A stretch of DNA of 64,000 bases. It comes from a virus. Position 1 is the stretch's first letter. The number at the start of each line of letters is the position of its first letter. The stretch spans positions 96,001 through 160,000 of IMG/VR virus record IMGVR_UViG_3300033233_000004. One strand, written 5' to 3'. The notes beneath the pieces were generated by a model. The model did no database searches. It was given only the letters and a program-made list of their open reading frames with translations, and was not told the DNA's origin. This document shows, piece after piece, positions 28,890-52,708 of this stretch. A program made the position numbers and the translations under genes.

Positions 28890-28965
28890 TGGTGCATCCA
28901 GTAGGAGTCGAACCTACAACCTTTCGATTAAGAATCGAAAGCTCTACCAATTGAGCTATGGATAC
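28890..28965 (-). tRNA. tRNA-Lys(CTT)
   Basis: Cloverleaf with encoded CCA, loop TTCTTAA. Confidence 0.92.
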
Positions 28966-28992
28966 GTATTTTTAAATTCGAACTGTATTTTG

Positions 28993-29064
28993 TGCCGCCA
29001 CTCAGAATCGAACTGAGGCCTCGCTGCTTAAAAGGCAGGTGAGCTACCATTACCCCATGGGGGC
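28993..29064 (-). tRNA. tRNA-Lys(TTT)
   Basis: Cloverleaf, loop CTTTTAA. Confidence 0.8.
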
Positions 29065-29106
29065 GATTTTATTTCATCCCATAAGGCGTTTCATCAATTG
29101 GTGAAA

Positions 29107-29589: not shown

Positions 29590-29685
29590 GATATCCTCTT
29601 TGTGTCTGGATATGTCTTGATACTTATGAATTGATTAAATACTGTCTATTTTCTGGACATTTATCTGGACATAATGTCCAAATTG

Positions 29686-29768
29686 CAGATAGTACGAGAC
29701 TTGAACTCGTAATCCCAATTAAGGACACCAATATTCCAAATTGGCTCTTTTCCATTCAGTTACTCTTT
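29686..29768 (-). pseudogene. Degenerate tRNA-Ser(GGA)
   Basis: Intact anticodon arm (TTGGAAT), variable arm and T arm; 5' acceptor strand damaged and overlapped by the HNH-like ORF end. Confidence 0.55.
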
Positions 29769-30221
29769 ATTTACATTAGTTGTTGCTCCCCATCCACGAG
29801 CTTGTCTATATGCAGTTGTGTCTTGTTCTGGATGAAGGCTACGAAAATTTCTTTTGTTTATTATTTTACAAAGTTTACATATTCTGCTGTTTCTGTTTGG
29901 TGGTATATAAGTATTGTCTTTATCATATGCATGTCCTTTTGGACAATGTGTTTTATTGGTTCGAGGTTCTCCAACATTACACGCTAAATGACTGAAAGCT
30001 ATATTACTTAAATCCCAAAATAATTTGGGGTCATTATTTAACCATGCAGTCTTATGCTCAATCGACAAGTCTTCTACAAATTCTATACAGCGATTACATC
30101 TATAACAAATATTCTCGTTATGAAGAATAAGCAAATGAAAGATAATCATTTTACGTAAACGTCCATTTGCCGTTCCAAATGGCATACCTAACTGTGCAGT
30201 TTTAATTGCATTAGAGTTCAT
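29760..30221 (-). CDS. HNH-like endonuclease with Zn-binding C-terminus
   Basis: CYRC...SIEHK...NIAFSHLACN; KTHCPKGHAY...RICKLC. Confidence 0.7.
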   Translation of the reverse strand: MNSNAIKTAQLGMPFGTANGRLRKMIIFHLLILHNENICYRCNRCIEFVEDLSIEHKTAWLNNDPKLFWDLSNIAFSHLACNVGEPRTNKTHCPKGHAYDKDNTYIPPNRNSRICKLCKIINKRNFRSLHPEQDTTAYRQARGWGATTNVNKE

Positions 30222-30253
30222 TTTAAGTCCTTTGACATTATGAACAAATAGAG

Positions 30254-30342
30254 CGGAGAGGTAGGGACTCGAACCCTATTGGGAGCTTTCGCCCCCCACG
30301 GTTTAGCAGACCGTTGCGACGCACCATCTTCGCCGCCTCTCC
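30254..30342 (-). tRNA. tRNA-Ser(GCT)
   Basis: Cloverleaf, loop CTGCTAA, long variable arm. Confidence 0.92.
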
Positions 30343-30395
30343 ATGCAAGTTTTCAAATAATGTCAATACTTAGGAGACCTTGCAACCCATACGAA

Positions 30396-30704
30396 CTAAT
30401 TCAACATTTCCATCCGTTTCACAGATAATAACATTCTTACAGTAAATACATTGGCTTCATCTTCCATATCATGACATTCACAAACAGGAAAGAAGACCAA
30501 TCTTGAAGTACCATCACCACGAGACCCAAATCCAAGAGCAGCCTCATCACCATCTGGAAGAATTACACCCCAATTATTAGTCGATGCTGTACAAATCCAG
30601 CAAGATGCATAACTGTTCTTTAATGAAGCAATCTTATTTTTGATAGCTTTGCTGAATTCTTCTATAGTTGGTATATTCATACAGTTTTCGCCAATCCTGT
30701 TCAT
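30396..30704 (-). CDS. Hypothetical Cys-containing protein
   Basis: CWIC...CECH. Confidence 0.55.
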   Translation of the reverse strand: MNRIGENCMNIPTIEEFSKAIKNKIASLKNSYASCWICTASTNNWGVILPDGDEAALGFGSRGDGTSRLVFFPVCECHDMEDEANVFTVRMLLSVKRMEMLN

Positions 30705-30744
30705 TATTTATCTCTGTTCACAAAAAATGAACATATCAAAAAAT

Positions 30745-30990
30745 GAACACAATGAGCTTACGCCAACTTCTGCTTTAGGTCATGATTTCTCTTGCGGCCT
30801 GTACCCGCCTTCATCGGTAAAGAATGCGTCTACCTCTGGCTGTTTCAGTTGCACACATACTGGTGGTACTATCGAACTGACCGTAGCTTTCAGGGCTACG
30901 ACCAGTTCTCCCGCTCATTCTTAGTGTGGTCGGACGTTTCTCTCATCCCTATTCCTACAGGGATAGAGCCATGACTTCTCTGTTGTGTTT
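30745..30990 (-). ncRNA. rnpB: Miniature RNase P RNA (about 246 nt)
   Basis: P1 AACACAA/UUGUGUU; P2 GUCAUGG/UCAUGAC; P3 AUCCCU...AGGGAU; P4 ACG(U)CCGAC/GUUGGCGU with bulged U; GUGCAACUGAAA S-domain motif. Confidence 0.8.
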
Positions 30991-31196
30991 CATTTCATAC
31001 TTCTCGTTCAAACAATACAAACACATTTGTTGCGTTGCATAACCGTTATCCAATTCATATCTCTTTGTTTCAACATATGCATGATGTTTGAATATATGAC
31101 ACAGTATTGCTCTACCGAGAGGTTTCAACGAACCTACATATATCACTATCCTCGGAAAAAGATACGGAATTCGTATGACAATTGGATTTTTCATTG

Positions 31197-31269
31197 TGTA
31201 GGTGAAGAGATTCGAACTCTCACGCCAGCGTTGGCAACGCCGTATGCTAACCATTAACATCACACCTAC
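31197..31269 (-). tRNA. tRNA-Gly(GCC)
   Basis: Cloverleaf, loop TTGCCAA. Confidence 0.88.
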
Positions 31270-31354
31270 AAAAACTTAGCTGTCTCATATTGCTCTATCG
31301 TGCGACATTCAACCCATACGAATCTTAATAGGCACTCCTATCCGAATGGGTTTG

Positions 31355-31429
31355 TAGCCTCAGAAGGAGTTGAACCCTCAAATCTCTGCGTTCGAAGCGC
31401 AGCATGTTATCCAGTTACACCATGAGGCC
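31355..31429 (-). tRNA. tRNA-Arg(TCG)
   Basis: Cloverleaf, loop CTTCGAA. Confidence 0.88.
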
Positions 31430-31639
31430 AAAATGAATCTTTTACAGTTCGACCAACATCAAGGTCAAAGTCGAGTTCAAAATAGAAGCAACTTACGTTA
31501 CCTTGTATTTAACAAGTTCCACCGACAGAAAGCGTTTGGTAGTAAGTAAGGGAGACTATTATCGACTGGCGGTGCCATAACCGTTAGTCCAGTTGATGCT
31601 TTCGTCTTCTTCTTTATGGCAAGTACTCCTATTTTTTTG

Positions 31640-31710
31640 AGCGGGTAGTGGTAGTTGAAACCACGTCCGATGGTTGGAAGCCACCTATAATACCGTTATA
31701 CGATACCCGC
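31640..31710 (-). tRNA. tRNA-Gly(TCC)
   Basis: Cloverleaf, loop CTTCCAA. Confidence 0.85.
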
Positions 31711-31711
31711 A

Positions 31712-31966
31712 TTATTCTTTATCCCAAAAATTCACATTAGAAAAATCGTGTGGTAAACCTAATGAATCTTCTAATTTATTCAATTGATAATTTTGATAAT
31801 CTAATTGCTGTTGTTGAAGCTTGTATAGAGACTCATATTGCATACGTTGAGCTTTTGCTGTTACATATGTTCCATGTTCTTTAACAAGAGAGTTTAATTC
31901 AATACAGAACCAAAGAAGTGCAGTAACTAATAAAAGAGTCATTACTACTTTTATAACATTCATCAT
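31712..31966 (-). CDS. Hypothetical membrane-anchored protein
   Basis: N-terminal TM segment plus coiled coil. Confidence 0.55.
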   Translation of the reverse strand: MMNVIKVVMTLLLVTALLWFCIELNSLVKEHGTYVTAKAQRMQYESLYKLQQQQLDYQNYQLNKLEDSLGLPHDFSNVNFWDKE

Positions 31967-32025
31967 GCAACCTTATTTGATTGTTTTCTCTGAAAATCAA
32001 CCATTAAAGGTTGATTATAACTTTG

Positions 32026-32099
32026 TACCCATGGCGAGACTCGAACTCGCATCGACGTAGGGTTTAAGCCTACCGAATATGCCATTCTTCTACATGGGC
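32026..32099 (-). tRNA. tRNA-Leu(TAA), short variable loop
   Basis: 74-nt cloverleaf, loop CTTAAAC. Confidence 0.8.
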
Positions 32100-32101
32100 A
32101 T

Positions 32102-32130
32102 AATGTACACAAACGAAAATCAAAAGTCAA
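32102..32130 (-). promoter_or_regulatory. Sigma70-type early promoter
   Basis: TTGACT-17-TACATT. Confidence 0.6.
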
Positions 32131-32182
32131 GAGAAATCTAAATAAAAATAGAGTTGCTGGCAGGATTCGATACCTGCCATTG

Positions 32183-32737
32183 TTATACGCCATGCGTTGC
32201 GGCAACTTCCAGCTGCACATCGCTGGCAATCTCGTTTCCCCATGTATCCCACCCGTCAACTCTTCGACGGGCGAACAATTCAACGCGAGGATTCAATCCT
32301 TTCGTCGCTCGTTCAATTAACTGGCGAAATTCTTCTGGCTTCTCACTGTGTCGCAATGCTTTCAACTGGAGAAAATTCGGTTCTTGACATCTAAAAGCCT
32401 TCACACGCCCACGTACACCAACAAGGATATGCTCTGTTTGTCCTCTGAACCAATAGCCCATTCCGAGACTCATTATCTTGCGCCACGTCAGCATTGTCTT
32501 GAAGGAATATCCCCACGCCCTGAGAACTTGAAACCCTTCTTCCATCATCGGAACGGTTACCCAAAGAAAAAGCACACTGTTGTTATCAGCAATTTCGCGC
32601 ACGTTCAATCGACAAATTTCATCAACAGTCATTGTCTTGTATTGGTATTCTGCCCCGCTTTGCATAGACTCACCCGTTTTCTTGTTTCGATATGTCCACG
32701 GGGGGTCTGCATATATTATCTGATATCGTTTTTCCAT
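32183..32737 (-). CDS. MT-A70 family N6-adenine methyltransferase
   Basis: IYADPPW, LFLWVT, GMGYWFRGQTEH, HSEKP, ELFAR, GWDTWGNE. Confidence 0.9.
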   Translation of the reverse strand: MEKRYQIIYADPPWTYRNKKTGESMQSGAEYQYKTMTVDEICRLNVREIADNNSVLFLWVTVPMMEEGFQVLRAWGYSFKTMLTWRKIMSLGMGYWFRGQTEHILVGVRGRVKAFRCQEPNFLQLKALRHSEKPEEFRQLIERATKGLNPRVELFARRRVDGWDTWGNEIASDVQLEVAATHGV

Positions 32738-32861
32738 TGCTCAAATCGTTGCCGCAAAACACGCACGGCGTATAACAAGCGGGTTAACGCAAGCCCTACC
32801 CAAATTGGTTTTGAAAAGCATCGTCTGGCAAGCCCTTCGCCTGCTCCAACCCGACTGGACG

Positions 32862-33125
32862 TTAGCCGCCATTTCGCTTACGCACATTTTCTTTACGCCA
32901 AAGTGCAAGCCCTGATCGTCCAGCAAGTTTGTCAACAACCGTAAATGCACCACGTATAAATTGACGACGTTCTTCTTCTGTTGCAAACCCGTGATGTTTT
33001 GGGAAATCGGCTGGTATAGCCCAGCAGTTAAGTTTAGTCCACCACCGTGCCAACCGAGCGCGCAAACGGCGGCTCACAATCGTGCTTACGTCGCTCACTC
33101 TTTTAGATTTCTTCATAGAATTCAC
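32862..33125 (-). CDS. Hypothetical cassette-borne protein
   Basis: Stop codon lies in the GGCTAAC boundary. Confidence 0.5.
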   Translation of the reverse strand: MNSMKKSKRVSDVSTIVSRRLRARLARWWTKLNCWAIPADFPKHHGFATEEERRQFIRGAFTVVDKLAGRSGLALWRKENVRKRNGG

Positions 33126-33186
33126 TCAACACCTTTCTCATTCATAAAAAGCGTGGAGTTCGGTGTGTGCATTGTTGGCGCACACG

Positions 33187-33477
33187 TTAACTGCAAGGTG
33201 GCGGTGGAAGTGGCATCCAATGCGTTATATTGAACGCAAACTCCGTTCCTTCCCATTCGCAATTATGGCTTATTCCTTCTCTTGTTTTCATTGTCATAAA
33301 TGATGATAAGTAACCAACCCTAATATCTTTCCTTTCCTCTCCCGTATGCGTTTTCCAATCATCAAACAATAGAACTTCTTTTCCTAATTCAGGTAGTTTG
33401 TCAACCACCGCTACCCAGTTAACACCACCTTGCTGCAATGCGGGTTTCTTCTTACTTTTTGAGTTTGTAGTTTTCAT
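33187..33477 (-). CDS. DUF551-like protein
   Basis: WVAVVDKLPE...ITHWMPLPPPP. Confidence 0.75.
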   Translation of the reverse strand: MKTTNSKSKKKPALQQGGVNWVAVVDKLPELGKEVLLFDDWKTHTGEERKDIRVGYLSSFMTMKTREGISHNCEWEGTEFAFNITHWMPLPPPPCS

Positions 33478-33691
33478 ATTATTTTGTTTTTATAGTTAAG
33501 TTTTCCACTTCACAGTCAATCCTGCCAAGTTGTATCATCAGGCCGTCTGTCTTTGATTTCGTGCCAAGCAATTAGTCGAATGAAATCAATCTGTGTAAAA
33601 GCGTCCATTGCTCACTCCTTTGATGTTTGAATTGTGTTCGCAACGTCGGACTTACGCCGTCACGCTGGTTGCCATGCGGTGCATTTTATAG

Positions 33692-33925
33692 TCACCGCTC
33701 GACAAGCGTATCGTGCAAATCTCGGTCTGGTTTCGGTACAACCTTTGCATTGCCGGGGACATATCCCCACCGAGTCCCACAGCAAAGGCATTCGTACTGT
33801 ATTACACCGATCAGTGGCGTTCCCGGAGGATCACCAGTTCCAGCTATTCTTGAATAATCTGGAATGTATGAATCATCAACTCTCATCACGTATTTACAAA
33901 CACATTCTCTATGGCTCATTTTCAT
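33692..33925 (-). CDS. Hypothetical Cys-rich protein
   Basis: ECVC...YECLCCG. Confidence 0.45.
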   Translation of the reverse strand: MKMSHRECVCKYVMRVDDSYIPDYSRIAGTGDPPGTPLIGVIQYECLCCGTRWGYVPGNAKVVPKPDRDLHDTLVER

Positions 33926-34090
33926 TTTACCCCGCTCAAATTATTGTACGCACCGACAACTAACAATGCAAAAGTACGGCACTGGCCGAAAGGAACTTAT
34001 CTCCTCGATTTACCACGCCCCGATAAGTGGATGACGTAGACAAGCATAAGGCACAATCTGCTTTAGCGTCTATCTTCCGCCACAGCACCT

Positions 34091-34166
34091 TGGTGCTCCC
34101 ACTACGAATCGAACGCAGGTCTCTTGAGTGTAGGTCAAGCGTGATACACCACTCTACTATAGGAGC
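34091..34166 (-). tRNA. tRNA-Val(TAC), C33
   Basis: Cloverleaf with CCA, loop CCTACAC. Confidence 0.85.
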
Positions 34167-34175
34167 AAAATTATG

Positions 34176-34247
34176 TACTCTCAAAAGGAATTGAACCTTC
34201 ATCTTAGATTTAGGAAATCCATATCCTATCCATTGGACGATGAGAGC
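34176..34247 (-). tRNA. tRNA-Arg(CCT)
   Basis: Cloverleaf, loop TTCCTAA. Confidence 0.88.
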
Positions 34248-34335
34248 AAATGCAATGGTCAGACGACTCCCGATAGCCTTATACAGATTCATCTTGCGAC
34301 TGGTAGAAGCTACCCTTTAACGTTCGTATTAATAG

Positions 34336-34409
34336 TACCCACGGTCAGACTCGAACTGACACTGTACGGCTTCTCGAACCGTTCCCTCTACCAATTGGGC
34401 TACGAAGGC
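34336..34409 (-). tRNA. tRNA-Leu(GAG), short variable loop, C33
   Basis: Cloverleaf, loop TCGAGAA. Confidence 0.72.
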
Positions 34410-34464
34410 GGTACGAGTGATTTTAACGAAGATGAGTAAAATCAAATCCGCCAAACGGTCTTAG

Positions 34465-34538
34465 TACTACGTAGGAGCCTCGAACTCCTAATCTCCTGAT
34501 TGAAAGTCAGGTGAGTTATCCATTTCCTCTAACGTAGC
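34465..34538 (-). tRNA. tRNA-Glu(TTC)
   Basis: Cloverleaf, loop CTTTCAA. Confidence 0.88.
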
Positions 34539-34564
34539 ATTTAGTCGAATCTGAAAGTTCAACT

Positions 34565-34741
34565 CTATTCGTCGCCCTTTTTCGTACAAGTGCAGGGTGA
34601 ATATCTTTTGCACTTGCAATTATTACATTGATGCTCTGGCTGTTTATTTGTTGAAGCCCGAAGTTGTCGAAGACCTTTATACTTAGTTGGGTCAAATGCT
34701 GTAACTACACCGCGCATATCTACTGTTGTTCCATTATTCAT
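34565..34741 (-). CDS. Small Cys-rich protein (58 aa, below the ORF-track cutoff)
   Basis: MNNGTTVDMRG...HQCNNCKCKRYSPCTC. Confidence 0.45.
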   Translation of the reverse strand: MNNGTTVDMRGVVTAFDPTKYKGLRQLRASTNKQPEHQCNNCKCKRYSPCTCTKKGDE

Positions 34742-34891
34742 CGAGTTCTTTCCGTTTCATGTAACCGCATAATTCTCAGACTCTCGGATCGCCAATTGTC
34801 CCTCTGCTATCCGTCTGCTAATACTATTCCGTCCCTTGCCATCAAACGAAGTACTTCTTGCTGCCGAGCAGTGAGTATCACATAAGGATGG

Positions 34892-35143
34892 TTAATAGTC
34901 TTCACAGTCATAACATCTGCACTCTGCACAATGCTTAACACCATGGTTGTGTTCGTCTGCCAGTTCAGCATCGTTACACCACGTACCACATTTCTCACAT
35001 TCTACGACACTGTTCTCCGAAAGATAGTGCTCCAACTCTTCGAGGTCAGAAAACGCCAATCCATACTTTTGGAGTATGTCAGCTATGCTTTGAGCAGTTC
35101 CTAACAAGTCGTCAGCAATCTTCGCTTTGAGTTCGAGTTCCAT
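34892..35143 (-). CDS. Hypothetical Zn-ribbon protein
   Basis: CEKCGTWC...CAEC; start MELELK. Confidence 0.55.
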   Translation of the reverse strand: MELELKAKIADDLLGTAQSIADILQKYGLAFSDLEELEHYLSENSVVECEKCGTWCNDAELADEHNHGVKHCAECRCYDCEDY

Positions 35144-35147
35144 CAAC

Positions 35148-35657
35148 TTAGACCTTGATACATAGATAACTGAACCCGCTACCTTTTCTGTACATCTTGG
35201 TGATTTGACAACCACCAAAGACTCCATGCACCCATTTCATATATACATGTAAACGTTTGTTTGCTTGCCATGTGCCTGTTTTCCCGATACAAGGTCTTCC
35301 ACTACGATTTCCTTCATATACAGAAATGTAGATGCAACCACCAACCTTCACATGTCGTCTTGCCAACCAAAGCACTTCTGTAATACCAGTAGATGTCTCG
35401 ATGACATTTAGAACATTACACAAAGTAACAGTGTCATAGTCATATCGTTCGAGCATTCTGGCATTGTGGTCGGATGTTCTATTGTAGGGGTCATAGATGA
35501 AGTTCCCTACACTTCGTTCCGCCAAATATTTAGTTGCTTCCTCGAACTTTCCACCACCAATATCCAGATTGCTGGTATGTGGATACCAGTTTACTAACTT
35601 AAACACTGCTGGTATCTGCTTGATACAGGTTCGTGCTGAACGATGTATTGTATCCAT
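35148..35657 (-). CDS. Small class I SAM-dependent methyltransferase
   Basis: NLDIGGG, YDPYN, YDTVTLCNVLNVI. Confidence 0.8.
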   Translation of the reverse strand: MDTIHRSARTCIKQIPAVFKLVNWYPHTSNLDIGGGKFEEATKYLAERSVGNFIYDPYNRTSDHNARMLERYDYDTVTLCNVLNVIETSTGITEVLWLARRHVKVGGCIYISVYEGNRSGRPCIGKTGTWQANKRLHVYMKWVHGVFGGCQITKMYRKGSGFSYLCIKV

Positions 35658-35671
35658 GGTATCTCCCTTTG

Positions 35672-35760
35672 TGCCCTAAGTGGGACTCGAACCCACAATC
35701 GTTTCTAATGTTTGCCGTAGGGTTTGAGCCTACCGACTTTGCCAGTTTGTCTACAAGGGC
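35672..35760 (-). tRNA. tRNA-Leu(CAA)
   Basis: Cloverleaf, loop CTCAAAC, long variable region. Confidence 0.82.
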
Positions 35761-35936
35761 GTTACTGTATGCATCCGATACTTGTATGTCTCTTCGTGTT
35801 ATCGCATATCGCATATTGCGATATGCAAATGCTCGTTTGGACGGTTTCTTTGTCTTGTGGCTTCACAAGCTCTTTGCGATGCTTAAGAGCCAGATGAACC
35901 AATTGTCGTATCAAACTTCTGCTTGGCTTTTCCATG

Positions 35937-36010
35937 TACCACATAAGGGCCTCGAACCCTTAATCTTCTGCTTGAGAGGCAGATGTGTTAGCCTATTCCA
36001 CTAATGTGGC
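35937..36010 (-). tRNA. tRNA-Glu(CTC)
   Basis: Cloverleaf, loop CTCTCAA. Confidence 0.88.
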
Positions 36011-36244
36011 ATTTCCGCTCTTTGCTCCCCACTTCATCATCTTCCAGACTCTGTGGTAGATGAAGTACAGCATAATGCGTATACCGATATATGTGAGACT
36101 TGTTTGAATAGAGTGTATTAAGATGTAAATAAGAATCAATCCGAATAATTCCCACACAACGCCTTTTACAAACGTCCGAATATAGCTACGCTTCTTATCT
36201 GTCATCTTATAGTATCCACTTTTCTCCACATTCTTGACATTCAT
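35993..36244 (-). CDS. Small membrane protein (DUF2061-like)
   Basis: KRSYIRTFVKGVVWE...LYFIYHRVWKMMKWG. Confidence 0.55.
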   Translation of the reverse strand: MNVKNVEKSGYYKMTDKKRSYIRTFVKGVVWELFGLILIYILIHSIQTSLTYIGIRIMLYFIYHRVWKMMKWGAKSGNATLVE

Positions 36245-36391
36245 ATAATGACGACTTTGGACGAATGGGTTTGAACTTGACTTCTGGTAAACCTATCAGC
36301 ATTCTTCCATTACTTAGATGAAAGAATCTGCACCACATTCGTCGCCAGAAACTTGGGTCTCTTTTTTCCATATGGCCTTTCTACTTGTTTG

Positions 36392-36466
36392 TACTCGGTG
36401 TAGGATTCGAACCCACGTTGACGCAGAATATAAGTCTGCCGCCTTAACCTGTCGTGCCAACCGAGC
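36392..36466 (-). tRNA. tRNA-Ile(TAT)
   Basis: Cloverleaf, loop CTTATAT. Confidence 0.75.
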
Positions 36467-36577
36467 ATAAAAACCGACAAATAGAATCGAAAACCAAACT
36501 CGTTTAATATACAGTTCGACTATAAATATTGGTCATATCCCTCTATATATATACTATATAGAAAGGATAACTACATC

Positions 36578-37189
36578 ATGACAAATTCCAAACAACGACA
36601 AGTCGAAGGACAACACATTACTGCGGCAATGTCTCATCAACGTTATCTAATACGAATAGAAACATACAAGCAAACTCCAAACTTATGTGCACAGTGTTAT
36701 GCACCGCTTGCTTATAGCCACCGAAAAAACAAATTCTGTTCTCATTCTTGTGCAGCTATTGTTACTAACAGGCTTTTTCCAAAAAGACAACAAACAAATG
36801 GAACAAGAGAATATCGAAGACAAGGAAAATGGCGTAAACAATTTAGAAAAAAAAGGCTCCGTGACCTGACATTACTGGAATATTTAGAACGAACACACGT
36901 TAAACCTCTTCCAGCGATGATAAAGAAATCTGCTCTTCGTTCTTTTGCTCGACATTGGAATCAAGACATTCTCAAAAAACCGTGTGCAAATTGTGGATAT
37001 GATAAACACGTTCAATTAGCACATATAAAAGCAATTCGAGATTTTCCATTAACAGCAACTTTGGGAGAAATTAACTCTCGAACAAACGTCATACAACTTT
37101 GCCCAAACTGTCATTGGGAATTCGATAATACCTTCCTTAAAATCTCTGTAGGGACAGAAGGATTTGAACCTTCAATTTCTCGATTATGA
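36578..37189 (+). CDS. HNH endonuclease
   Basis: CAQC...FCSHSC; CANCGY...AHIK...NVIQLCPNCHWEFD. Confidence 0.85.
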   Translation: MTNSKQRQVEGQHITAAMSHQRYLIRIETYKQTPNLCAQCYAPLAYSHRKNKFCSHSCAAIVTNRLFPKRQQTNGTREYRRQGKWRKQFRKKRLRDLTLLEYLERTHVKPLPAMIKKSALRSFARHWNQDILKKPCANCGYDKHVQLAHIKAIRDFPLTATLGEINSRTNVIQLCPNCHWEFDNTFLKISVGTEGFEPSISRL

Positions 37190-37221
37190 GCCGAGCGGAT
37201 TAGCCATTCTCCTATATCCCT
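37149..37221 (-). tRNA. tRNA with CAT anticodon (Ile2 or elongator Met)
   Basis: Cloverleaf, loop CTCATAA. Confidence 0.82.
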
Positions 37222-37298
37222 AAAAAGTACGTACCCCCAAAGAGGACTCGAACTTGGATGTTACTCGCTACTGCCGACCTCAACCCCACTATAATTTT

Positions 37299-37763
37299 TT
37301 ACGGAACAGGTCGTAATGATGTTATATTTCTATTACCATCTACTCCAATTCTGAATGTTGCACCAACTTCGACAAACTGAGCAAGCAACTCACTGTATGG
37401 ACTAATTACAGTAATGCCAAATTCTTTATTACCTTGCTCGTTACCAATCTGGTCATTCCATTGATTAACTAATGAAAGTACTGGCTCCTGAAATTGATTT
37501 ACCGGAACTCCTCGTAAAACATTGGTGTTGGATTGAACCACGCCAACAAAACCTTCAGTACTATACAAAAATGCTTGTCCATTATCCCAAGCAGAAAGTG
37601 TTACAACACCTACTTTCTCCAAAGACTGTACAGTAGTGGAGATTGGATTAATGTTTGAATCTGATGCTTGTGTACAGCCAGAACAATACAAACAAACTGC
37701 TGTAAACAAAAGCAACAAACTGGCTGAAAATATCTTAACTGCTTTAGCCGTTTGACTCTTCAT
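37299..37763 (-). CDS. Putative lipoprotein
   Basis: Signal peptide ending CSGC; AAGGAG SD. Confidence 0.6.
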   Translation of the reverse strand: MKSQTAKAVKIFSASLLLLFTAVCLYCSGCTQASDSNINPISTTVQSLEKVGVVTLSAWDNGQAFLYSTEGFVGVVQSNTNVLRGVPVNQFQEPVLSLVNQWNDQIGNEQGNKEFGITVISPYSELLAQFVEVGATFRIGVDGNRNITSLRPVP

Positions 37764-37821
37764 ATAAGTATCTCCTTAAATTATGTGATTTGTTATTTTA
37801 GTGAATTAGTGTTGTGAATTG

Positions 37822-37898
37822 TACCCTTGATGGGAATTGAACCCACATTTTCATCCGTTATGCACGTTCTGCTTAGAAGGCAGAGCCATTACAAGGGC
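37822..37898 (-). tRNA. Atypical tRNA-Arg(TCT) lacking a D arm
   Basis: Acceptor, anticodon (CTTCTAA) and T arms intact; 7-nt D-replacement loop; 21-nt variable region. Confidence 0.65.
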
Positions 37899-37986
37899 AA
37901 ATCTAATTGTGACTGGCTTACAGCATATCATAAGTTCACTTACAAACGAAGCTACTATCATGCAAGGGTTTGTCTGTAAGCCATCG

Positions 37987-38057
37987 TCCGCCCAAGAGGA
38001 ATCGAACCTCTATTACCAGTATATCGGACTGGCTTCCTACCGTTGAAAGACAGGCGG
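37987..38057 (-). tRNA. tRNA-Ile(GAT), C33
   Basis: Cloverleaf, loop CCGATAT. Confidence 0.78.
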
Positions 38058-38133
38058 AAAAGTATATCTTATTTACTTGGTTCATCAAGGTTAATACGAG
38101 TAAACTCATCAATGTCGATGTTGTGCGCCATGC

Positions 38134-38343
38134 TTAGTTTATCCCCTGCCGACATCCACAATTCTGACAGTAATCGGTATATTCGGGCCGATCAATGTGT
38201 ACCACCATTTCAGCGTGGGGATCGCCGCACAGAATCACTTTTCGATGAACTCGATCATACACAATCGAATCTGCGGGTCGATCACAGTCATCGTCGGGAT
38301 ATTCGCACTTGTCTTTTCCAGTCAAATGTCGTACTTCGCTCAT
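38134..38343 (-). CDS. Small Cys-rich hypothetical protein
   Basis: AAGGAG SD; CEY..C...CQNCGC. Confidence 0.6.
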   Translation of the reverse strand: MSEVRHLTGKDKCEYPDDDCDRPADSIVYDRVHRKVILCGDPHAEMVVHIDRPEYTDYCQNCGCRQGIN

Positions 38344-38495
38344 AAAGTTCTCCTTTCATTTAATCGGCATCGCACTACCCACTAAAAATACAAAGAATAA
38401 AGGGACAATGTGGAACCCAAAGTCAACTTAGCCGCCTTACCATGCTGTGTACGGGAGACAGGAGTAAACCGTACATGAGAACATTGTCCATTGAG

Positions 38496-38569
38496 TGGAC
38501 ACAGGTGAGATTCGAACTCACAACCTCCGCATTGCAGGTGCGGCGCATTCCCATTAATGCTACTGGCCC
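38496..38569 (-). tRNA. tRNA-Ala(TGC), C33
   Basis: Cloverleaf, loop CCTGCAA. Confidence 0.82.
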
Positions 38570-38688
38570 CAAAAAGTCATTACACTGGTCAACCACTGCG
38601 CTACCCATCTGGATTGCTCTATGCGGTTATGGATTGTCTCCGCCGAATAGTCCAGCATAAGCCTTGTCCGTTGTATGCAATGACTTTG

Positions 38689-38761
38689 TACCATCATACA
38701 GATTCGAACTGTATCTTTGAAGTCCACAACTTCACGTGCTATCCATTAACACTATGATGGC
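38689..38761 (-). tRNA. tRNA-His(GTG)
   Basis: Cloverleaf, loop TTGTGGA. Confidence 0.88.
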
Positions 38762-39058
38762 ATAATACTTCCAGACCCAACGTTTGAGGGTTATAAAGAC
38801 CCAAGTCTGGAAGTTATTTTTATACTATGTTCCCATCCACCGCTTATGCAGCAGATACACTGTCCATTCAGCCTCACAATTATGACGACCGTTAAAGTGG
38901 GAACTTCTTTTTTTAACCTCTGGCGAAGTTGTCTCCGCTTTCCACTCGACTGGCGAACGATTTGAGAAGTAGGTTTCGAGCCTTGTTTCATTTGTCGTTC
39001 CTAAATCAGAGGGTGTTACCTGAATCATTCTCTTAAATTGTCGTCCAATGATTCATTG

Positions 39059-39135
39059 CAGGACGTAGAGGAATCGAACCTCTTCGCTATTTGCACAGGT
39101 TTTGGAGACCTGCCGGAGACCATCTCCCACGTCCC
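39059..39135 (-). tRNA. tRNA-Trp(CCA)
   Basis: Cloverleaf, loop CTCCAAA, slightly long variable loop. Confidence 0.8.
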
Positions 39136-39356
39136 ATTTGTGGTACCTTCCATAGAACCTCTTAAGATGCTGAGAAAGATACCATAATTTTATTAAGTCC
39201 CTTATCTGCGGTTTTTGCACAGTGAACTGTGCAAAAATACTCACAAAGGGACTATAAATACGGGATAACCTACAGGTGCGACCTGCTTCTGTATCGTCGG
39301 ATTATCAGCGACTATCCAATATCAAGATTCCCTTGAATCCTGTTCTTGGAGTGGTG

Positions 39357-39432
39357 TAGCAAGAGCAGGATTCAAACCTGCGATTTCTTGATTATGAGTC
39401 AAGCGAGGACGGTCAGACTCCTCTATCTTGCA
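39357..39432 (-). tRNA. tRNA-Met(CAT), initiator-like
   Basis: Loop CTCATAA; unpaired 1:72. Confidence 0.8.
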
Positions 39433-39433
39433 G

Positions 39434-39507
39434 TCAAGGTGACAGGATTCGAACCTGCGACTTTCTGGCCCCAAACCAGACGCTCTACCAGACTGAGCCA
39501 CACCCTG
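39434..39507 (-). tRNA. tRNA-Pro(TGG)
   Basis: Canonical cloverleaf, loop TTTGGGG. Confidence 0.92.
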
Positions 39508-39597
39508 AAGTTATCTAAAAAACAAACCATTTTGACTACGCTCTGAATCTCGTTTACAACCATTGCAGAATTTGACCATAAAAATCAACTACCTTAG

Positions 39598-40010
39598 TGG
39601 ACGTGTCGGCAATCGAAGCCGAGTCCAAAGTACTACTAATAAAAAATCATTCACAGGTTTAGTCAGGCTTAGAACTCTTTGGTGCCACTACAAACCCGAC
39701 GAACTCAGGCAACCGCAACAAAGCATTTGTTCAGTCCACGGTGCTTTGTACCTTCCGTGTTTCGCCATCTCCACCATCTGGTTTTTTGTCGTTGTGAGGT
39801 GTGTCAAACAGACCATATACCAGAACCTCACGAACTTATACCATTACTGGCACAAGTTCACTCTCGTCTGCAAAGACCAAAATACCAGCCTCGTCAACGA
39901 AAGCCGTAGAAGATTTAGCTTCTGCGTTTGTGTTTTTTAGTTACATTACGGTGTAACAACCCCGACCTGCATTCTTTACTAATTTTACCCTGTCGAATCC
40001 TTTCACGCCC
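39598..40010 (-). ncRNA. ssrA: tmRNA
   Basis: 5' GGGCGTGAAAGGATTCGAC; 3' T arm TCGGCTTCGATTGCCGA-CACGTCCA with G3.U; tag ORF 39925-39836 resuming at GCA. Confidence 0.9.
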
Positions 40011-40046
40011 ATTGTATTACAACTATCTCTTTTTTCTCTGCTCTTT

Positions 40047-40319
40047 TTACAAGTGTCGATGACCAGTGTATACAAAATGCTTTCTGTAAATTTCTCGTGT
40101 TGGTTTCCTATTACTACCATTTGTTAAGAACAACTCAGGATGCTCATCTCCTTGTTTGGTAACAAATACCGAAAAGGTATTACAAGCTAAGAATTCGTCA
40201 GCACATCTTTTCTGGAATACACATGTATCACAAGGCGACGGAACCAGAAGTTCACCCATGGATGCTTCAATTATGGATGCTTCTTCCTGCGTAAGATATT
40301 TTTGAATAAGATTACTCAT
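40047..40319 (-). CDS. Hypothetical Cys-containing protein
   Basis: AAGGAG SD directly behind a promoter; PCDTC...RC...LAC. Confidence 0.65.
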   Translation of the reverse strand: MSNLIQKYLTQEEASIIEASMGELLVPSPCDTCVFQKRCADEFLACNTFSVFVTKQGDEHPELFLTNGSNRKPTREIYRKHFVYTGHRHL

Positions 40320-40337
40320 GTATCTCCTTGTTTGAGT

Positions 40338-40366
40338 AATATACTCATATCATCTGTAAAAGTCAA
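40338..40366 (-). promoter_or_regulatory. Sigma70-type early promoter
   Basis: TTGACT-17-TATATT. Confidence 0.7.
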
Positions 40367-40386
40367 GTGAAGTCTAAACTTTTTTG

Positions 40387-40459
40387 TGGGGCAAGTAGGA
40401 GTCGAACCTGCTTATCTGGATTTTCAGTCCAGCACACTGACCACCAGTGTTATCACCCC
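40387..40459 (-). tRNA. tRNA-Phe(GAA)
   Basis: Cloverleaf, loop CTGAAAA. Confidence 0.88.
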
Positions 40460-40648
40460 AATAAGAGGCTGTCTCTAATGTATGTCTCCTACAGTGCAAC
40501 AGCCTCTTGGCTCTCGAAGGAGTCCTTTATTTGCTTTGTAGGCTAACAGCTTGTTTTTACCACAACGTCTTGTAGTATGGGTCAAGCATTATTCCCATGT
40601 CCTGTATCTCAACATCCCATAGAACGTTGAGGTTCAGTTTTTTGAAAA

Positions 40649-40722
40649 TCGTCCCTGTCGGAATCCGACCGACATCTCTCCTTGAAAATAAGGAGTGTTC
40701 TAAGCAGTTAAACTAAGGGCAT
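40649..40722 (-). pseudogene. Degenerate tRNA-like sequence
   Basis: D, anticodon and T arms present, but the loop is not 7 nt and the acceptor stem is frayed. Confidence 0.45.
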
Positions 40723-40724
40723 TT

Positions 40725-40952
40725 CTATGATTTCGATATTTCATTTACACCATGTTTTTCTAAGCAGTCTGGCGTAATACAATTTCCTTCTGAATCAACT
40801 TGTATTGGGCCACAACCTTCACAGAGAACTACAGCATATAATCCTTGTGCTTCTTCTTCTATTGTTGTTATTCCAACAAAATCACCTTTATGAATGTCAC
40901 CACCATTATGTGGATATAAATTCTCTGCACATTGTCTACAGAATTCTGCCAT
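40725..40952 (-). CDS. Hypothetical Cys-rich protein
   Basis: MAEFCRQC...LCEGCG...GNC; GGAG SD. Confidence 0.65.
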   Translation of the reverse strand: MAEFCRQCAENLYPHNGGDIHKGDFVGITTIEEEAQGLYAVVLCEGCGPIQVDSEGNCITPDCLEKHGVNEISKS

Positions 40953-41134
40953 ATTATCTCCTCTTTGGTAATCTTATTTCACTACGTCCATCATTAGGGT
41001 CGAAAGACTCGTATCCACGATACCTAAAGAATTGTTGTGACTTTTTATTCTTATCTAACACAACGTTATTCTTGACTATTCTAAAACCAGTTGGATATTG
41101 GTCAATAAGTTTTCGCTGTTGTTTATTATGCTTT

Positions 41135-41350
41135 TCATTGCTTAAAAATGTCATCTGAGGCTCCAACTAAAATCTCTCCATGGGCACCTTTTAAAAGAAT
41201 AACATTTACACCCTTTTCAAATAGGTTTCGTGCCACTTTATACTCATCGACATTAGTCAGAACCTGATTGTGTTTGTAACCAGAGTCTTTGATAGCTTTA
41301 ATTTCTCGATGAGAGGTATGCCATGCAAACACTGTTACTTTTTCAGCCAT
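41135..41350 (-). CDS. Hypothetical protein
   Basis: Packed small ORF. Confidence 0.55.
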   Translation of the reverse strand: MAEKVTVFAWHTSHREIKAIKDSGYKHNQVLTNVDEYKVARNLFEKGVNVILLKGAHGEILVGASDDIFKQ

Positions 41351-41352
41351 AT

Positions 41353-41583
41353 TTACCCTTTGTCAAAATGTTTGTATTTTTCGGTAAAGGATACAAATCT
41401 GACTTCTATATCTTGCAATGCATCTGAAACACAAGCGTAAGGGCCATACGTAGTAATCATATTACCATGAATCACCATAGTAGCATACCAACAACCATTT
41501 CCCTTGTCCCAATAGATACCACAACCATCTTGTTCAGTACCACAGGTAAAATGTCTTGTTCTTTTATCATATGTCCATACCAT
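41353..41583 (-). CDS. Hypothetical protein
   Basis: AGGAG SD. Confidence 0.6.
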   Translation of the reverse strand: MVWTYDKRTRHFTCGTEQDGCGIYWDKGNGCWYATMVIHGNMITTYGPYACVSDALQDIEVRFVSFTEKYKHFDKG

Positions 41584-41600
41584 AGAATCTCCTGTTTACG

Positions 41601-41691
41601 CGGTAAGTGACGGATTCGAACCCTCAAAACATCTTTCGACGTTCAACCAATTTTCAAGATTGGGCCTCGCACCAATGAGGTCAGACTTACC
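41601..41691 (-). tRNA. tRNA-Ser(TGA)
   Basis: Cloverleaf, loop CTTGAAA, long variable arm. Confidence 0.88.
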
Positions 41692-42099
41692 AAAACTAAC
41701 CTATTTTGAATACTATCTATAATTTGAACATTTGTGCAAGGCAAAACAGACACAAATACCCAACCGTTATCTGCAAGCCGTTGTCATTCGTAGCGGCTCA
41801 CTGCCATCACCTAATTTCCGTTGTGGCACGACCTATCCGCTTTTTTCTGTCAAGCCAAATTCGTTGTTTCCGACAATGAAAAACTCATGCTCTCTGTCAT
41901 CAATGAGATAATCATCGTCCTGTAATTCCGGTTTGTTCTTGGTGACAAATACTACTCCGTTGGGTTGTAATGCTAACCATACCTTTATCTTCATGTCTTT
42001 CGCTCCTTTTCAAAATCTAAACAGGTGAGGTTTTGAATCTCTGGTTCATCTGCTGATACTACAGATGCGTCTTCTTCTCTTTAGACGATACCTGTTGTG

Positions 42100-42171
42100 A
42101 GCCGCAAATGTGAATCGAACACACACCACCTGACATACCAAGTCAGTGCACTACCATTATGCTACTGCGGC
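42100..42171 (-). tRNA. tRNA-Thr(GGT)
   Basis: Cloverleaf, loop TTGGTAT. Confidence 0.88.
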
Positions 42172-42185
42172 ATTACTTATTATTA

Positions 42186-42257
42186 GGCCAACGACTTGAC
42201 TTGAACAAGCATCTCTCGATTACGAAACGAGAATTCTACCACTTAAACTACGCTGGC
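42186..42257 (-). tRNA. tRNA-Thr(CGT)
   Basis: Cloverleaf, loop TTCGTAA. Confidence 0.8.
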
Positions 42258-42415
42258 GTTTCTTTCTTCCACATAATGGTAGATAATCTCACCAAATGGA
42301 ACGACAGTGACCTTTGACTTCATTTGAGAAGTTTGAGGAGTCTTTGGATGTCCAAAAAAAGCACTATAAATCCAAGCTCCAATTAACATTGATATAAGGT
42401 TAAGTCCCATGATGT

Positions 42416-42444
42416 AATGTACATAATCGTAAATCAAAAGTCAA
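42416..42444 (-). promoter_or_regulatory. Sigma70-type early promoter
   Basis: TTGACT-17-TACATT. Confidence 0.65.
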
Positions 42445-42461
42445 GGTAAATCTGAACTATT

Positions 42462-42536
42462 TGGAGCCACAAATCCGATTCGAACGGATGCCATTATCTT
42501 ACAGGGATAATATACTTCCAACTATACTATTGTGGC
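42462..42536 (-). tRNA. tRNA-Thr(TGT), C33
   Basis: Cloverleaf with CCA, loop CCTGTAA. Confidence 0.82.
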
Positions 42537-42540
42537 ATTG

Positions 42541-42612
42541 AGACCAGAGTGGAATTCGAATCCACATACGTAGTTTTGCGGACTACTACCTAAGCCCTTC
42601 GGTCATCTGGTC
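42541..42612 (-). tRNA. tRNA-Cys(GCA), C33
   Basis: Cloverleaf, loop CCGCAAA, U73. Confidence 0.85.
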
Positions 42613-42823
42613 AATGTCTAATTAAACGTTGCTACTTCAACAACCAATTGGGATTTCTGTCATAGTTGTTGCGAGCATAAAGTATGACAGAAATAACATT
42701 CGCCTTTTGGAAACTTTGGTAAAACTTTCATATGCTCAATTTCAATCTCAAAGAATGCTTCCAACTCTTCATTTGATTTAAGATGGAATTTCTTTTTATT
42801 TCATCAATGAATCTACCCATGTG

Positions 42824-42895
42824 CTGCGGACGAATGAATCGAACATTCATGATAGGCTTCAGAGACCTACATCTTATCCATTAGATGAATCCGCA
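42824..42895 (-). tRNA. tRNA-Gln(CTG)
   Basis: Cloverleaf, loop CTCTGAA. Confidence 0.85.
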
Positions 42896-42896
42896 A

Positions 42897-43203
42897 TTAT
42901 TTCTTTTTATCAGTTTTCTCACGAGTACGAAGCTCATTAAATAGAGCTACAACAGCGTCCGCCGATTTCAAATCCTTCTTGCGTTCTATTGCTCCTACTA
43001 CAGCGTAAGGATAAAAACTTCGCCAAGTATCTGTACTCGCAAAGTACGTGATACTGAATCTATGTTCCCAATTTTGTAATGTAACTACAAGATGGGGTGT
43101 ACCATTGAGTGAAAATCTGAATTCCGCACCTTCAATTTTTTCACCCAACTCTTTAATCTTGGCTTCAATAACTGCTGAGAATTTGGTTATTCTGTTTCCC
43201 ATA
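42897..43203 (-). CDS. Hypothetical protein (start at about MGNRITK)
   Basis: ORF between tRNAs with GAGG SD. Confidence 0.55.
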
Positions 43204-43223
43204 TTAGGTTCCTCAATCTGTTG

Positions 43224-43298
43224 TGGCTCCGACAGCAAGAGTCGAACTTGCAACTCCACGGTTAACAGCCGTGTACTCTGCCATTGAGTTATGTCGGA
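43224..43298 (-). tRNA. tRNA-Asn(GTT)
   Basis: Canonical cloverleaf with CCA. Confidence 0.92.
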
Positions 43299-44043
43299 AT
43301 AAAATCTGATGTTCTATTTCCCGCCAAGAGTAGGATAGGTAACTCTAACAAGTGTTACTCTCACCCGCATACTCGGTGCCTATCTATGTGTATGCGACCC
43401 AAGGTAACACAGCGTACATAGATACATCAGAAAGCTTCAAATTCTCCTATATAACTAATACCATATTCCAAAATAGGAAAATCAGAAGTCATGATTTCAT
43501 CTTCCATACGAAAAGCTTCTATAACAGCTTCTTCTTTTGTCTGAAATACTTTAGAAGTTCCAAAATAACTTCTCAAAGTATCTTTTCTTTCTTGAGAACC
43601 TTCTGGATAATAATCTATATTCTCATTAGATCGTCAGAGGTCTACTCAAAGTGTCTTCTCGACACATCCAGTATCAACAATTCAAAGTAGCGAACTTCAA
43701 ATTTACACTGGTCTTAGTTTTCACCAACGATTGATACCTTATCACGTCCCAAAATAGTTCTTTTGACTGGATTCGAACCAGTAATCATTCGCTTCTTGTG
43801 CACATGGGCGAATACGGGTATTCCGCTCGGCTGCCAGTTTCGACACAAAAGAACACGATATATCTCCTTTTTTTATGAACCAATAGAATAACCACGCTCT
43901 TTTAAAGCAGCAAGTATCTTTTTTGCTTCAGAAATAGCTGCTTCTTTTGTATAACTTTCGTCGCTTATTGAACGAAATCCATACAGAATAGTTGCGATGT
44001 CTTCAACAAATAATTTTTCCATAAAAGTATCCTTCTTTCTTTG

Positions 44044-44128
44044 TGTATCAGGATGGATTCGAACCACCAAGGATTTCTCCTACTTGTGGGTTACAGCCAC
44101 ATGCCTTACCAATTGAGGCTACAGATAC
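44044..44128 (-). tRNA. tRNA-Tyr(GTA)
   Basis: Loop CTGTAAC, long variable arm. Confidence 0.88.
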
Positions 44129-44157
44129 AAACTTGTAATGGACTCCCAAATTTAATG

Positions 44158-44228
44158 CGGAGCCAGAGAGAATCGAACTCTCAATCCTTGCGTGACAGGC
44201 AAGCAGTTTGCCATTAACTTATGACTCC
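44158..44228 (-). tRNA. tRNA-Asp(GTC)
   Basis: Loop CTGTCAC, G73. Confidence 0.88.
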
Positions 44229-46857: not shown

Positions 46858-47109
46858 TGCTTGGCTCTCCTTTCTTGGCTCGGACACCGTGTCCTTGCAT
46901 ACTACAATATAACACATGACATTTTTGTCGTTCACTCGGTTGCGATTCTGTTCTGTGTTCGCAAGTCAACACGGTCTAAGTCATTACGCATCGGTCAATA
47001 ATTCTGTCAAGAGCGTTTCCCGAATTGCGCTCGATCTCGTTTGGAAGTTGCCGATTGCCGCTCACGCTCACAAGAAAATTTATTTTCAAGAGCCTGATTC
47101 CTGTTCCGA

Positions 47110-47343
47110 CTGTCATCTCATACACACGTGCGAGTTGCAACGGGGAATCATGAATCAAATCAGAATCTCAGCAAACTGTCATCTCATACACACGTGCGAG
47201 TTGCAACATCTGACCGAGCCGTAAGATGTTGATCGCAGCATTCCTGTCATCTCATACACACGTGCGAGTTGCAACACGAACACTCTCTTCTATGAGGATG
47301 ATTACCACAAGCTGTCATCTCATACACACGTGCGAGTTGCAAC
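47110..47343. CRISPR. CRISPR array: 4 identical 32-bp repeats, 3 spacers (34, 36, 36 bp)
   Basis: CTGTCATCTCATACACACGTGCGAGTTGCAAC at 47110, 47176, 47244 and 47312. Confidence 0.95.
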
Positions 47344-47369
47344 CACTATACAAATCTGTCAACACCAGT

Positions 47370-48650
47370 CTATACAATCTGTATAGCTTCCGCTAACCCA
47401 AACTTTTGAGACCCTTCTGACTCGATACACCCGTCAGTCGGTGAGACGAACGTCTCTTTACAGGCTTGCGCCTGTTGGCTCTGACCGAGCCTTAAGATGT
47501 TAATAGCAGCATTCAAATCTCGATTTATTTCAAGCCCACATTCGCATGTATATATTCGTTCCGCTAACGTCTTCTTTTGCACACGACCACACTGTGAACA
47601 TGTACTTGTTGTTCCTGCTGCTTTTACTTTCACAAAGACCCTACCAGCTTCTTCCGCTTTGTAGGCAATCTGATTCAAAAACTGTGACCAACCAGCATCA
47701 GCAATAGACTTATTCAATCCGTTCGGTAAACTTGATTTTGGCTTACATCGCTTAGACATTGTTTTTACGTTCAAATCTTCAACAGCAATCAACCCATACT
47801 GATTTACAAGCGTTCGAGACAATTTATGGTGAAAATCTGCTCGTTGTCTACGAATCTTGGTATGTAAAGCAACAACTCGTTTTTTAGCGTTTTGACGACG
47901 ATTAGAGCCTTTGGCCTTGCGACTCAAACTTTGTTGTGCTTCGGTTAGCGCAACCGCCGCCTTACGATACCAACGAGGGTTTTCTATTGCCTGTCCAGTA
48001 GATAACATAGCAAAGGTGTTCAAACCAACATCAATACCGACTTGTTTGTCGGTATTAGGTAATCTTTGACAAGGTACATTATTACAAGAAAATACAACAT
48101 ACCACTCATTTGCTTCTCGTTTGATTATTGTAGTCTTGATTGTCCCAAGAATACTGCGGTCTATCTTGACACGAACAAGACCAATGTTCAAGAATCTTAC
48201 AACGAATCTACCACTTGGGAGCTTCACAAGTTTACAACCAGAACCGTATGTTGGATACACAAGACTATCCCATCTATCTCGTCCTTTGAATCGAGGAAAA
48301 CCTGCGGCTTTACCTGCACCTACTTGTACACGTTTCTCGAATGCCTTGTAAGCCTTATGTAGACGGTCTAATACCGCATTACAAGTTTGTGCTGGTACTT
48401 GACCAAGACCAGCAGGGTCAGAAATACGGGCTTCTGGATAAAATCTCATCTGGTCATACGCAGTAAGCGATGATACAGAAGACGTATATTTCTTTTTGTT
48501 CTCATTCCAAAACTTGGGTGTAGACTTGTACTGATGTATACGCTGTTCCAACGCAGCATTATACAGAGACCGAGTTGCATTCAATTGTAACTCAAGTTTC
48601 TGAATTTGAACCTTGTTAGGATACAAACGATATTTAAATGATTTACGCAT
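47370..48650 (-). CDS. TnpB-derived miniature type V effector (Cas12f/TnpB-like), 426 aa
   Basis: FKYRLYP N-terminus, GFPRFK, RuvC-I GIDVG, RuvC-II AVEDL, CSQCG...CECG Zn finger, RuvC-III NRDLNAAINI; array starts 26 nt after the stop; no tnpA adjacent. Confidence 0.88.
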   Translation of the reverse strand: MRKSFKYRLYPNKVQIQKLELQLNATRSLYNAALEQRIHQYKSTPKFWNENKKKYTSSVSSLTAYDQMRFYPEARISDPAGLGQVPAQTCNAVLDRLHKAYKAFEKRVQVGAGKAAGFPRFKGRDRWDSLVYPTYGSGCKLVKLPSGRFVVRFLNIGLVRVKIDRSILGTIKTTIIKREANEWYVVFSCNNVPCQRLPNTDKQVGIDVGLNTFAMLSTGQAIENPRWYRKAAVALTEAQQSLSRKAKGSNRRQNAKKRVVALHTKIRRQRADFHHKLSRTLVNQYGLIAVEDLNVKTMSKRCKPKSSLPNGLNKSIADAGWSQFLNQIAYKAEEAGRVFVKVKAAGTTSTCSQCGRVQKKTLAERIYTCECGLEINRDLNAAINILRLGQSQQAQACKETFVSPTDGCIESEGSQKFGLAEAIQIV

Positions 48651-48660
48651 AGTACAAGTC

Positions 48661-49086
48661 CTAAATCATAAGTACGTCTATACTGACTTGATACGCCAGT
48701 ACTGTATGTTGATTGTAATATTGTTTCGTGAATTTGGCAATCTTAATAATATCTTCTCTGGAACAACTAATACGCACTGGTATCATTGGCTCAACAATAA
48801 GAGTTTTTGTTTGTGGATGTATCCAAGTACCTTTGGCTGTTTTGAGTAATGTCATTCCTTCTGAAAGTGAATAAACGAAATCATCCCATTGTTGATGGTA
48901 AGAAACTGAAATTTCATTACCATCCTTATCATTTGCTGGTACCAAAATCTCCCACATCATTACAGGAATAGATGGCAATTCAAAAAAAGCACGCGCATGA
49001 CGAATACGATCTTGTTCTGCAAAAAGAGTATGCACTAACAAACTGCCATTACTAAGCCGTTGTTTTAAACATTTAAAACTACTCAT
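48661..49086 (-). CDS. Conserved hypothetical phage protein
   Basis: MWEILVP...HQQWD...KGTW...EPMIPVRI. Confidence 0.6.
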   Translation of the reverse strand: MSSFKCLKQRLSNGSLLVHTLFAEQDRIRHARAFFELPSIPVMMWEILVPANDKDGNEISVSYHQQWDDFVYSLSEGMTLLKTAKGTWIHPQTKTLIVEPMIPVRISCSREDIIKIAKFTKQYYNQHTVLAYQVSIDVLMI

Positions 49087-52636: not shown

Positions 52637-52708
52637 ATCTCCTTTTTGAGTGATTGGATGACAACTTTTGACACATTCAATATACTACATAGAAATTTAA
52701 AAGTCAAG
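52637..52708 (-). repeat. 72-bp exact repeat, copy 2 (promoter + 5'UTR + SD)
   Basis: Identical to 20598-20669. Confidence 0.9.

Follow-up and report, generated by a model that had tools for sequence, protein, structure and literature searches.

Transposon-CRISPR intermediates, or TranC systems, have recently been described (Jin et al. 2025, as cited in PMC13639567 and PMC13565253). As those citing papers present them, a TnpB-sized nuclease without expanded domains is accompanied by a short array with repeats of 32-38 nt, no adaptation genes belong to the system, and the reRNA is split into tracrRNA-like and crRNA parts. One TranC, CauTranC9, is phage-borne and targets phages (bioRxiv 10.64898/2026.03.27.714800). 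Mini-arrays of a different kind are carried by the viruses SPV1 and SPV2: their few spacers are aimed at close relatives, near the array, where point mutations set the carrier's own orthologous site apart, and they have no cas gene, the repeats and effectors being those of the host (PMC6858448). The Cas12r module of Thermus Lalka phages is type V, needs no tracrRNA, and targets integrative elements (bioRxiv 10.64898/2026.04.20.719267). Finally, the T-even intronless homing endonucleases SegF and SegB are free-standing, protein-guided nucleases that cleave a conserved gene nearby in a relative and spare their own copy (PMC13565253).

Here we compare with these systems a phage locus in which a spacer matches the gene of the adjacent nuclease. 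It is TranC-like in its nuclease size, in its short array, in lacking adaptation genes of its own and, by prediction, in its split guide RNA; its repeats are 32 nt, whereas those of TranC clade 9 are 38 nt. Like the SPV mini-arrays it holds few spacers, one of them directed near the array and toward a close relative; unlike them it encodes its own effector, whose gene is the probable target. With Cas12r it shares a phage-borne type V setting and a likely role in conflict among mobile elements, and with SegF and SegB the pattern of a nuclease that could be directed at a relative's nearby conserved allele, with the differences that guidance here would be by RNA and that homing is a proposal. In the literature searched, largely open-access papers and with the TranC paper represented by those citing it, we found no case of a spacer against an ortholog of its own effector.

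The nuclease gene, the array and the guide scaffold

The window (the whole 64,000-nt stretch analysed, positions 96,001 to 160,000 of IMG/VR record IMGVR_UViG_3300033233_000004) belongs to a complete phage genome of 171,836 bp, which has 35 tRNA genes and one array. The tRNA genes are clustered on the minus strand at 27335-44228 of the window, and an exact, promoter-like 72-nt intergenic repeat occurs at 20598-20669 and again at 52637-52708. Profile searches of the complete genome found no Cas1, Cas4 or Y1 TnpA. A search of IMG/VR for sister phages, using ribonucleotide reductase, returned only relatives at 49-70%.

The gene for a tnpB-type RNA-guided nuclease (47370-48650, minus strand) encodes 426 aa with an intact RuvC triad (D207/E291/D378), and a CRISPR array lies beside it, a linkage kept in the relative described below. 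Its predicted fold resembles ISDra2 TnpB (PDB 8H1J, 8EXA), with which it shares the RuvC triad, the zinc finger and, in the predicted RNA, the first stem and pseudoknot of the omega-RNA; residues 401-426 form a low-confidence tail that overlies the RNA scaffold. [quoted passage not shown] Membership in Cas12n, Cas12f or V-U2 was rejected on these C2c8 and Cas12f2 scores and on the lack of expanded REC and WED domains; Cas12n was compared by name in the fold search, where RdCas12n was weak. Among 15 billion catalogued proteins no full-length relative exceeded approximately 50% amino acid identity. In a tree the protein nested among array-less TnpBs of IS605 and IS607 elements, on a long branch and with its placement unsure. 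LaTranC aligned with residues 245-392 only, and the protein is closer to ISDra2 TnpB than to LaTranC.

None of the fetched homolog loci has an array; most of them have an ordinary IS605 right end, and tnpA adjoins two. At the phage locus the right-end hairpin is replaced by the array. A mobile IS200/IS605 element was considered and rejected, as there is no tnpA in cis or elsewhere in the genome and no short terminal hairpin ending in TCAC or TCAA. Where ISDra2 has a tnpA, a TCAC-type right end and a terminal stem, the phage has a predicted anti-repeat and repeat in place of that stem, an arrangement that would accommodate several guides. A second, ordinary IS605-type tnpB lies outside the window (G000:C1:81713-82924); it encodes 404 aa, is 34% identical to the array-linked protein, and is followed by two right-end-like hairpins in this genome without tnpA. 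The gene just upstream of the array-linked tnpB (48661-49086) belongs to a family of about 100-130 aa, and its closest homolog (L085) has no tnpB after it.

The mini-array occupies 47110-47343 on the minus strand, co-oriented with tnpB, and consists of four identical 32-nt repeats (starting at 47110, 47176, 47244 and 47312) separated by spacers of 34, 36 and 36 nt: spacer 1 at 47142-47175, spacer 2 at 47208-47243 and the tnpB-proximal spacer 3 at 47276-47311, all read on the minus strand. Neither the exact repeat nor its core was found in IMG/VR, GTDB or JGI contigs, in contrast to SPV1 and SPV2 with their repeat borrowed from the host; three single gapped matches to the repeat look like chance. 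No target was found for spacer 1 and no credible target for spacer 3; 18-nt matches to these spacers (the best 28/36) are within chance expectation, in sequences that have no genes in common with this phage. A TAM can therefore not be derived from them. Since they also lack a homolog in the phage's own genome, they do not demonstrate targeting of kin.

The same array is present in a second assembly (L012, ENA), and in sediment run X1 a contig covering repeat, spacer 2 and repeat matches without differences at depth 25. The window, L012 and X1 are independent assemblies, possibly of one sample; the concern voiced in the preliminary description that spacer 2 might be an assembly chimera is thereby removed. 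Depth in X1 was 25 across the spacer-2 unit (47178-47275) and 12.8 on the tnpB contig, possibly reflecting a duplication within the array or sharing of the unit with a co-occurring element. Another X1 contig matches 46892-47103 with three differences, like those of L012 in kind, before running into approximately 500 nt of other sequence in place of the array; one X3 contig likewise breaks at 47103. The distal flank of the array is thus variable in the population.

A tracrRNA-like scaffold, the 5' part of a split omega/reRNA, is predicted at 47344-47491 on the minus strand. The region 47312-47492 folds into hairpins with a z-score of -4.40 on that strand, as against -1.94 on the plus strand. 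A predicted anti-repeat (47390-47412, minus strand) forms 18 pairs with nucleotides 2-14 and 22-27 of the repeat, each at a predicted probability of 0.87-1.0; tested alone, the duplex was no better than shuffled sequences (p 0.38). The loop of hairpin 1 (47482-47485, minus strand) is predicted to form a pseudoknot with the minus-strand repeat, pairing 4/4 at positions -6 to -3. The same loop in 14 array-less homologs has its partner in the right end, at positions -6 to -3; the pairing is complete (4/4) in 12 of them and 3/4 in the other two, and the pseudoknot of ISDra2 has the same register (PMC10097598); the A-U to U-A swap seen in the phage is absent from all 14. The relative's scaffold differs by two compensatory pair changes and two changes from G-U to Watson-Crick pairs. 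Rfam returned no match. The plus orientation, with a tracrRNA in 46936-47109, was also considered: its 10-bp anti-repeat-like stretch is not above shuffles (p 0.31), the region folds no better than chance, and the plus-strand end of the repeat is unable to form the pseudoknot. The minus orientation of the guides assumed in the preliminary description is thus supported by fold, anti-repeat, pseudoknot and covariation. Because the pseudoknot keeps the family register, the repeat would take the place of the omega-RNA 3' end, and the spacers would sit at the guide position. These predictions from sequence and folding point to a TranC-like anatomy, the omega-RNA being split into a tracrRNA-like scaffold and the repeat.

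Spacer 2 and the alleles of tnpB

Spacer 2 matches 47479-47514 (minus strand), within the phage's own tnpB, at 32/36. The site spans codons 379-391 of the gene and, in the predicted scaffold, the first stem-loop. Mismatches fall at window positions 47479, 47492, 47502 and 47505, which in the minus orientation are guide positions 36, 23, 13 and 10, exactly as first described. A match of this quality is expected by chance in the genome approximately 6e-9 times; the second-best match of spacer 2 within the 172-kb genome is 23/38, and the second tnpB was ruled out as a target, as the spacer does not match it. Both spacer and site encode NAAINILRLGQ. Each of the three internal mismatches is synonymous, again in agreement with the preliminary description, and the terminal mismatch is a change from Ser to Ile that disrupts a conserved RNA stem pair. 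If the spacer had mutated randomly, three silent changes of three would have a probability of 0.012; spacer 2 is therefore read as the copy of a coding allele.

Among the 1243 36-nt windows of the gene, the site ranks fourth in nucleotide conservation across five homologs, because it encodes both protein and the first stem of the scaffold. Such a target would be hard to escape from; it would also offer a good match to any tnpB of the lineage, and site conservation does inflate such matches. The preliminary description had named RuvC-III as the target and had pointed to a T-rich 5' flank. The match does lie in tnpB, at codons 379-391, while the codon of the catalytic Asp378 (47517-47519) falls in the 5' flank. 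That flank, at the TAM position (47515-47519, minus strand), does read GATTT and is identical in the relative; it is no evidence of a TAM, since the Asp-Leu codons force it and an array-less homolog shares it.

Contigs of three sediment runs (X1, X2 and X3) were aligned to the locus. Runs X2 and X3, from two other studies, contain an orthologous tnpB with the same repeat adjacent, and the alignment extends into the upstream gene. Nucleotide identity is approximately 94% near the array and 86% further up. The relative is known from contigs alone, the largest of 4.8 kb, and is presumably a phage. It has the letter of spacer 2 at 47492 and at 47502, so that it matches the spacer at 34/36 (1 of 25 differences was unlisted and the count could be off by one), and two mismatches are left, one inside the seed at guide position 10 and one at 36. 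As with SPV1 and SPV2, then, a near-array spacer has a better fit to a relative than to its carrier. Among the catalogued homologs that were fetched (at most approximately 50% amino acid identity) the best match is 29/36, and no perfect protospacer was found in IMG/VR, JGI metagenomes, GTDB (one 20/36 match), or phage and plasmid records. The earlier proposal that spacer 2 came from a competitor's gene is strengthened by the better fit of the related ortholog and falls short of a 36/36 target.

The spacers of the relative differ from those of the phage: in X3 other sequence follows the proximal repeat, at the place of spacer 3, and in X2 there is another repeat-spacer-repeat unit. Spacer 2 was unseen in X2 and X3, as were spacers 1 and 3 in the part of X1 that was read; the contigs are gapped, and absence from them proves nothing. 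The 4.8-kb X3 contig crosses one repeat at 47312 and 315 nt beyond it unbroken, which suggests a single exact repeat, a one-guide state, in that strain.

Origin and use of spacer 2

We consider it reasonably probable (roughly 60%) that spacer 2 derives from the tnpB of a close relative and guides an attack on kin, the match to the phage's own gene being a by-product of homology. Under this reading the phage would carry a TranC-like system in which each spacer serves as a guide for the TnpB-sized nuclease. The source of spacer 2 would have been the tnpB ortholog in a closely related phage, and either host Cas1-Cas2 or recombination would presumably have brought it into the array. During co-infection, guide 2 would then direct a cut in the relative's genome, within the nuclease gene and guide scaffold there. 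The carrier has the same flank as the relative, and nothing but its silent mismatches at positions 10 and 13 of the guide would spare it. ISDra2 TnpB no longer cuts when two mismatches fall in positions 1-12, and cuts less when they fall at 13-16 (PMC10097598); as the own site has just one mismatch within positions 1-12, self-protection would be an extrapolation from these rules. From the alleles compared, the best reading is that the donor also belonged to this narrow lineage and was a third member of it. The 2 and 4 differences in 36 are consistent with divergence among these relatives, and spacer content varies between strains. Against the derivation from kin stand the lack of a 36/36 target and the mismatches of the relative at seed position 10 and at 36.

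The donor could instead have been another mobile element, such as a host IS605 copy or a plasmid, carrying a tnpB of the same narrow lineage, so that the spacer records a conflict with that element or its chance capture. The high conservation of the site would allow this, the codons of the spacer are richer in GC and less typical of this phage, and true IS605 elements with tnpA are among the nearest homologs. No such donor appeared, however, among the 15 billion proteins or in GTDB genomes, and the sole closer allele adjoins the same repeat and upstream gene; we regard this origin as unlikely.

We would give slightly less credence to the idea that the spacer goes back to a fragment of an ancestor's own tnpB, the ancestor having survived through mutations in gene and spacer. 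The site adjoins the array, and the relative may simply keep ancestral letters. At 47505 and 47479, however, the phage's gene agrees with the relative and not with the spacer, which would require two mutations in the spacer while 128 nt of repeats stayed identical. The related suggestion in the preliminary description, that the phage's gene escaped by silent mutation, left no signature: the site changed at 2/36 positions as against 11/176 nearby (p=1), and the changes are all toward the AT-rich codons that the phage prefers. Outgroups are split, and ancestral states are not fixed by them.

A regulatory use was also proposed in the preliminary description: the self site, with its perfect first 9 nt, would be bound without being cut. 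Such binding through the 9-nt seed would block transcription into scaffold and array. The first 9 nt do match, the site falls right where the predicted scaffold starts, and other systems regulate through partial complementarity. Described regulatory guides, however, hit promoters and are conserved in related loci, whereas spacer 2 is a full-length spacer between perfect repeats and its site is far into the gene, with the start codon 1.1 kb away. The mismatches follow codon structure, one of them falls within the 12-nt seed, and the flank gives no TAM evidence. Autoregulation is thus poorly supported and, in our view, highly improbable. The class of regulatory crRNA-like RNAs, with their short partial matches to promoters of cas genes, was set aside, as the match here is 32/36 and falls at the gene's 3' end.

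The derivation from kin has a compatible extension. Repair of the cut made in a sister phage could copy the carrier's tnpB allele, with the array, into the rival, as in RNA-guided intronless homing; spacers aimed beside the array would then be favoured, being self-copying, and the locus would be a homing element programmed by CRISPR through an acquired spacer, its target being a site that catalytic codon and scaffold together hold fixed. The gene makes up 0.75% of the genome and the 600-nt zone around the array 0.35%, yet the sole spacer with a homologous site falls there. The predicted cut is 135-170 nt from the array, and identity of 86-94% across the locus is sufficient for recombination. 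For free-standing phage homing nucleases, substitutions within a conserved gene nearby distinguish one allele from another (PMC13565253), and the spacers of SPV viruses also match close to their own arrays, a pattern left unexplained (PMC6858448). Killing or disarming a rival would account for the position of the target as well, however, and one allele of a relative is at hand; homing is accordingly held here as a tentative and rather doubtful addition.

Kin-directed viral mini-arrays were already known from SPV1 and SPV2, as were phage-borne TnpB-sized effectors with arrays from CauTranC9 and Cas12r. What is new is that the target of the spacer is the effector gene itself, at one of its most conserved stretches, and such targeting could also drive homing of the cassette. 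The locus adds an isolated, 426-aa TranC-like nuclease, at most approximately 50% identical to any catalogued protein. With three alleles (spacer, relative and self) that differ at defined guide positions, and with a predicted scaffold, it makes discrimination between self and non-self in the absence of a TAM difference testable. It is also a test case for what selection acts on early intermediates between TnpB and Cas12, and for why the spacers of viral mini-arrays strike relatives beside the array. If homing is true, it would explain the clustering of such spacers beside their arrays and would provide a selfish route from TnpB homing to CRISPR.
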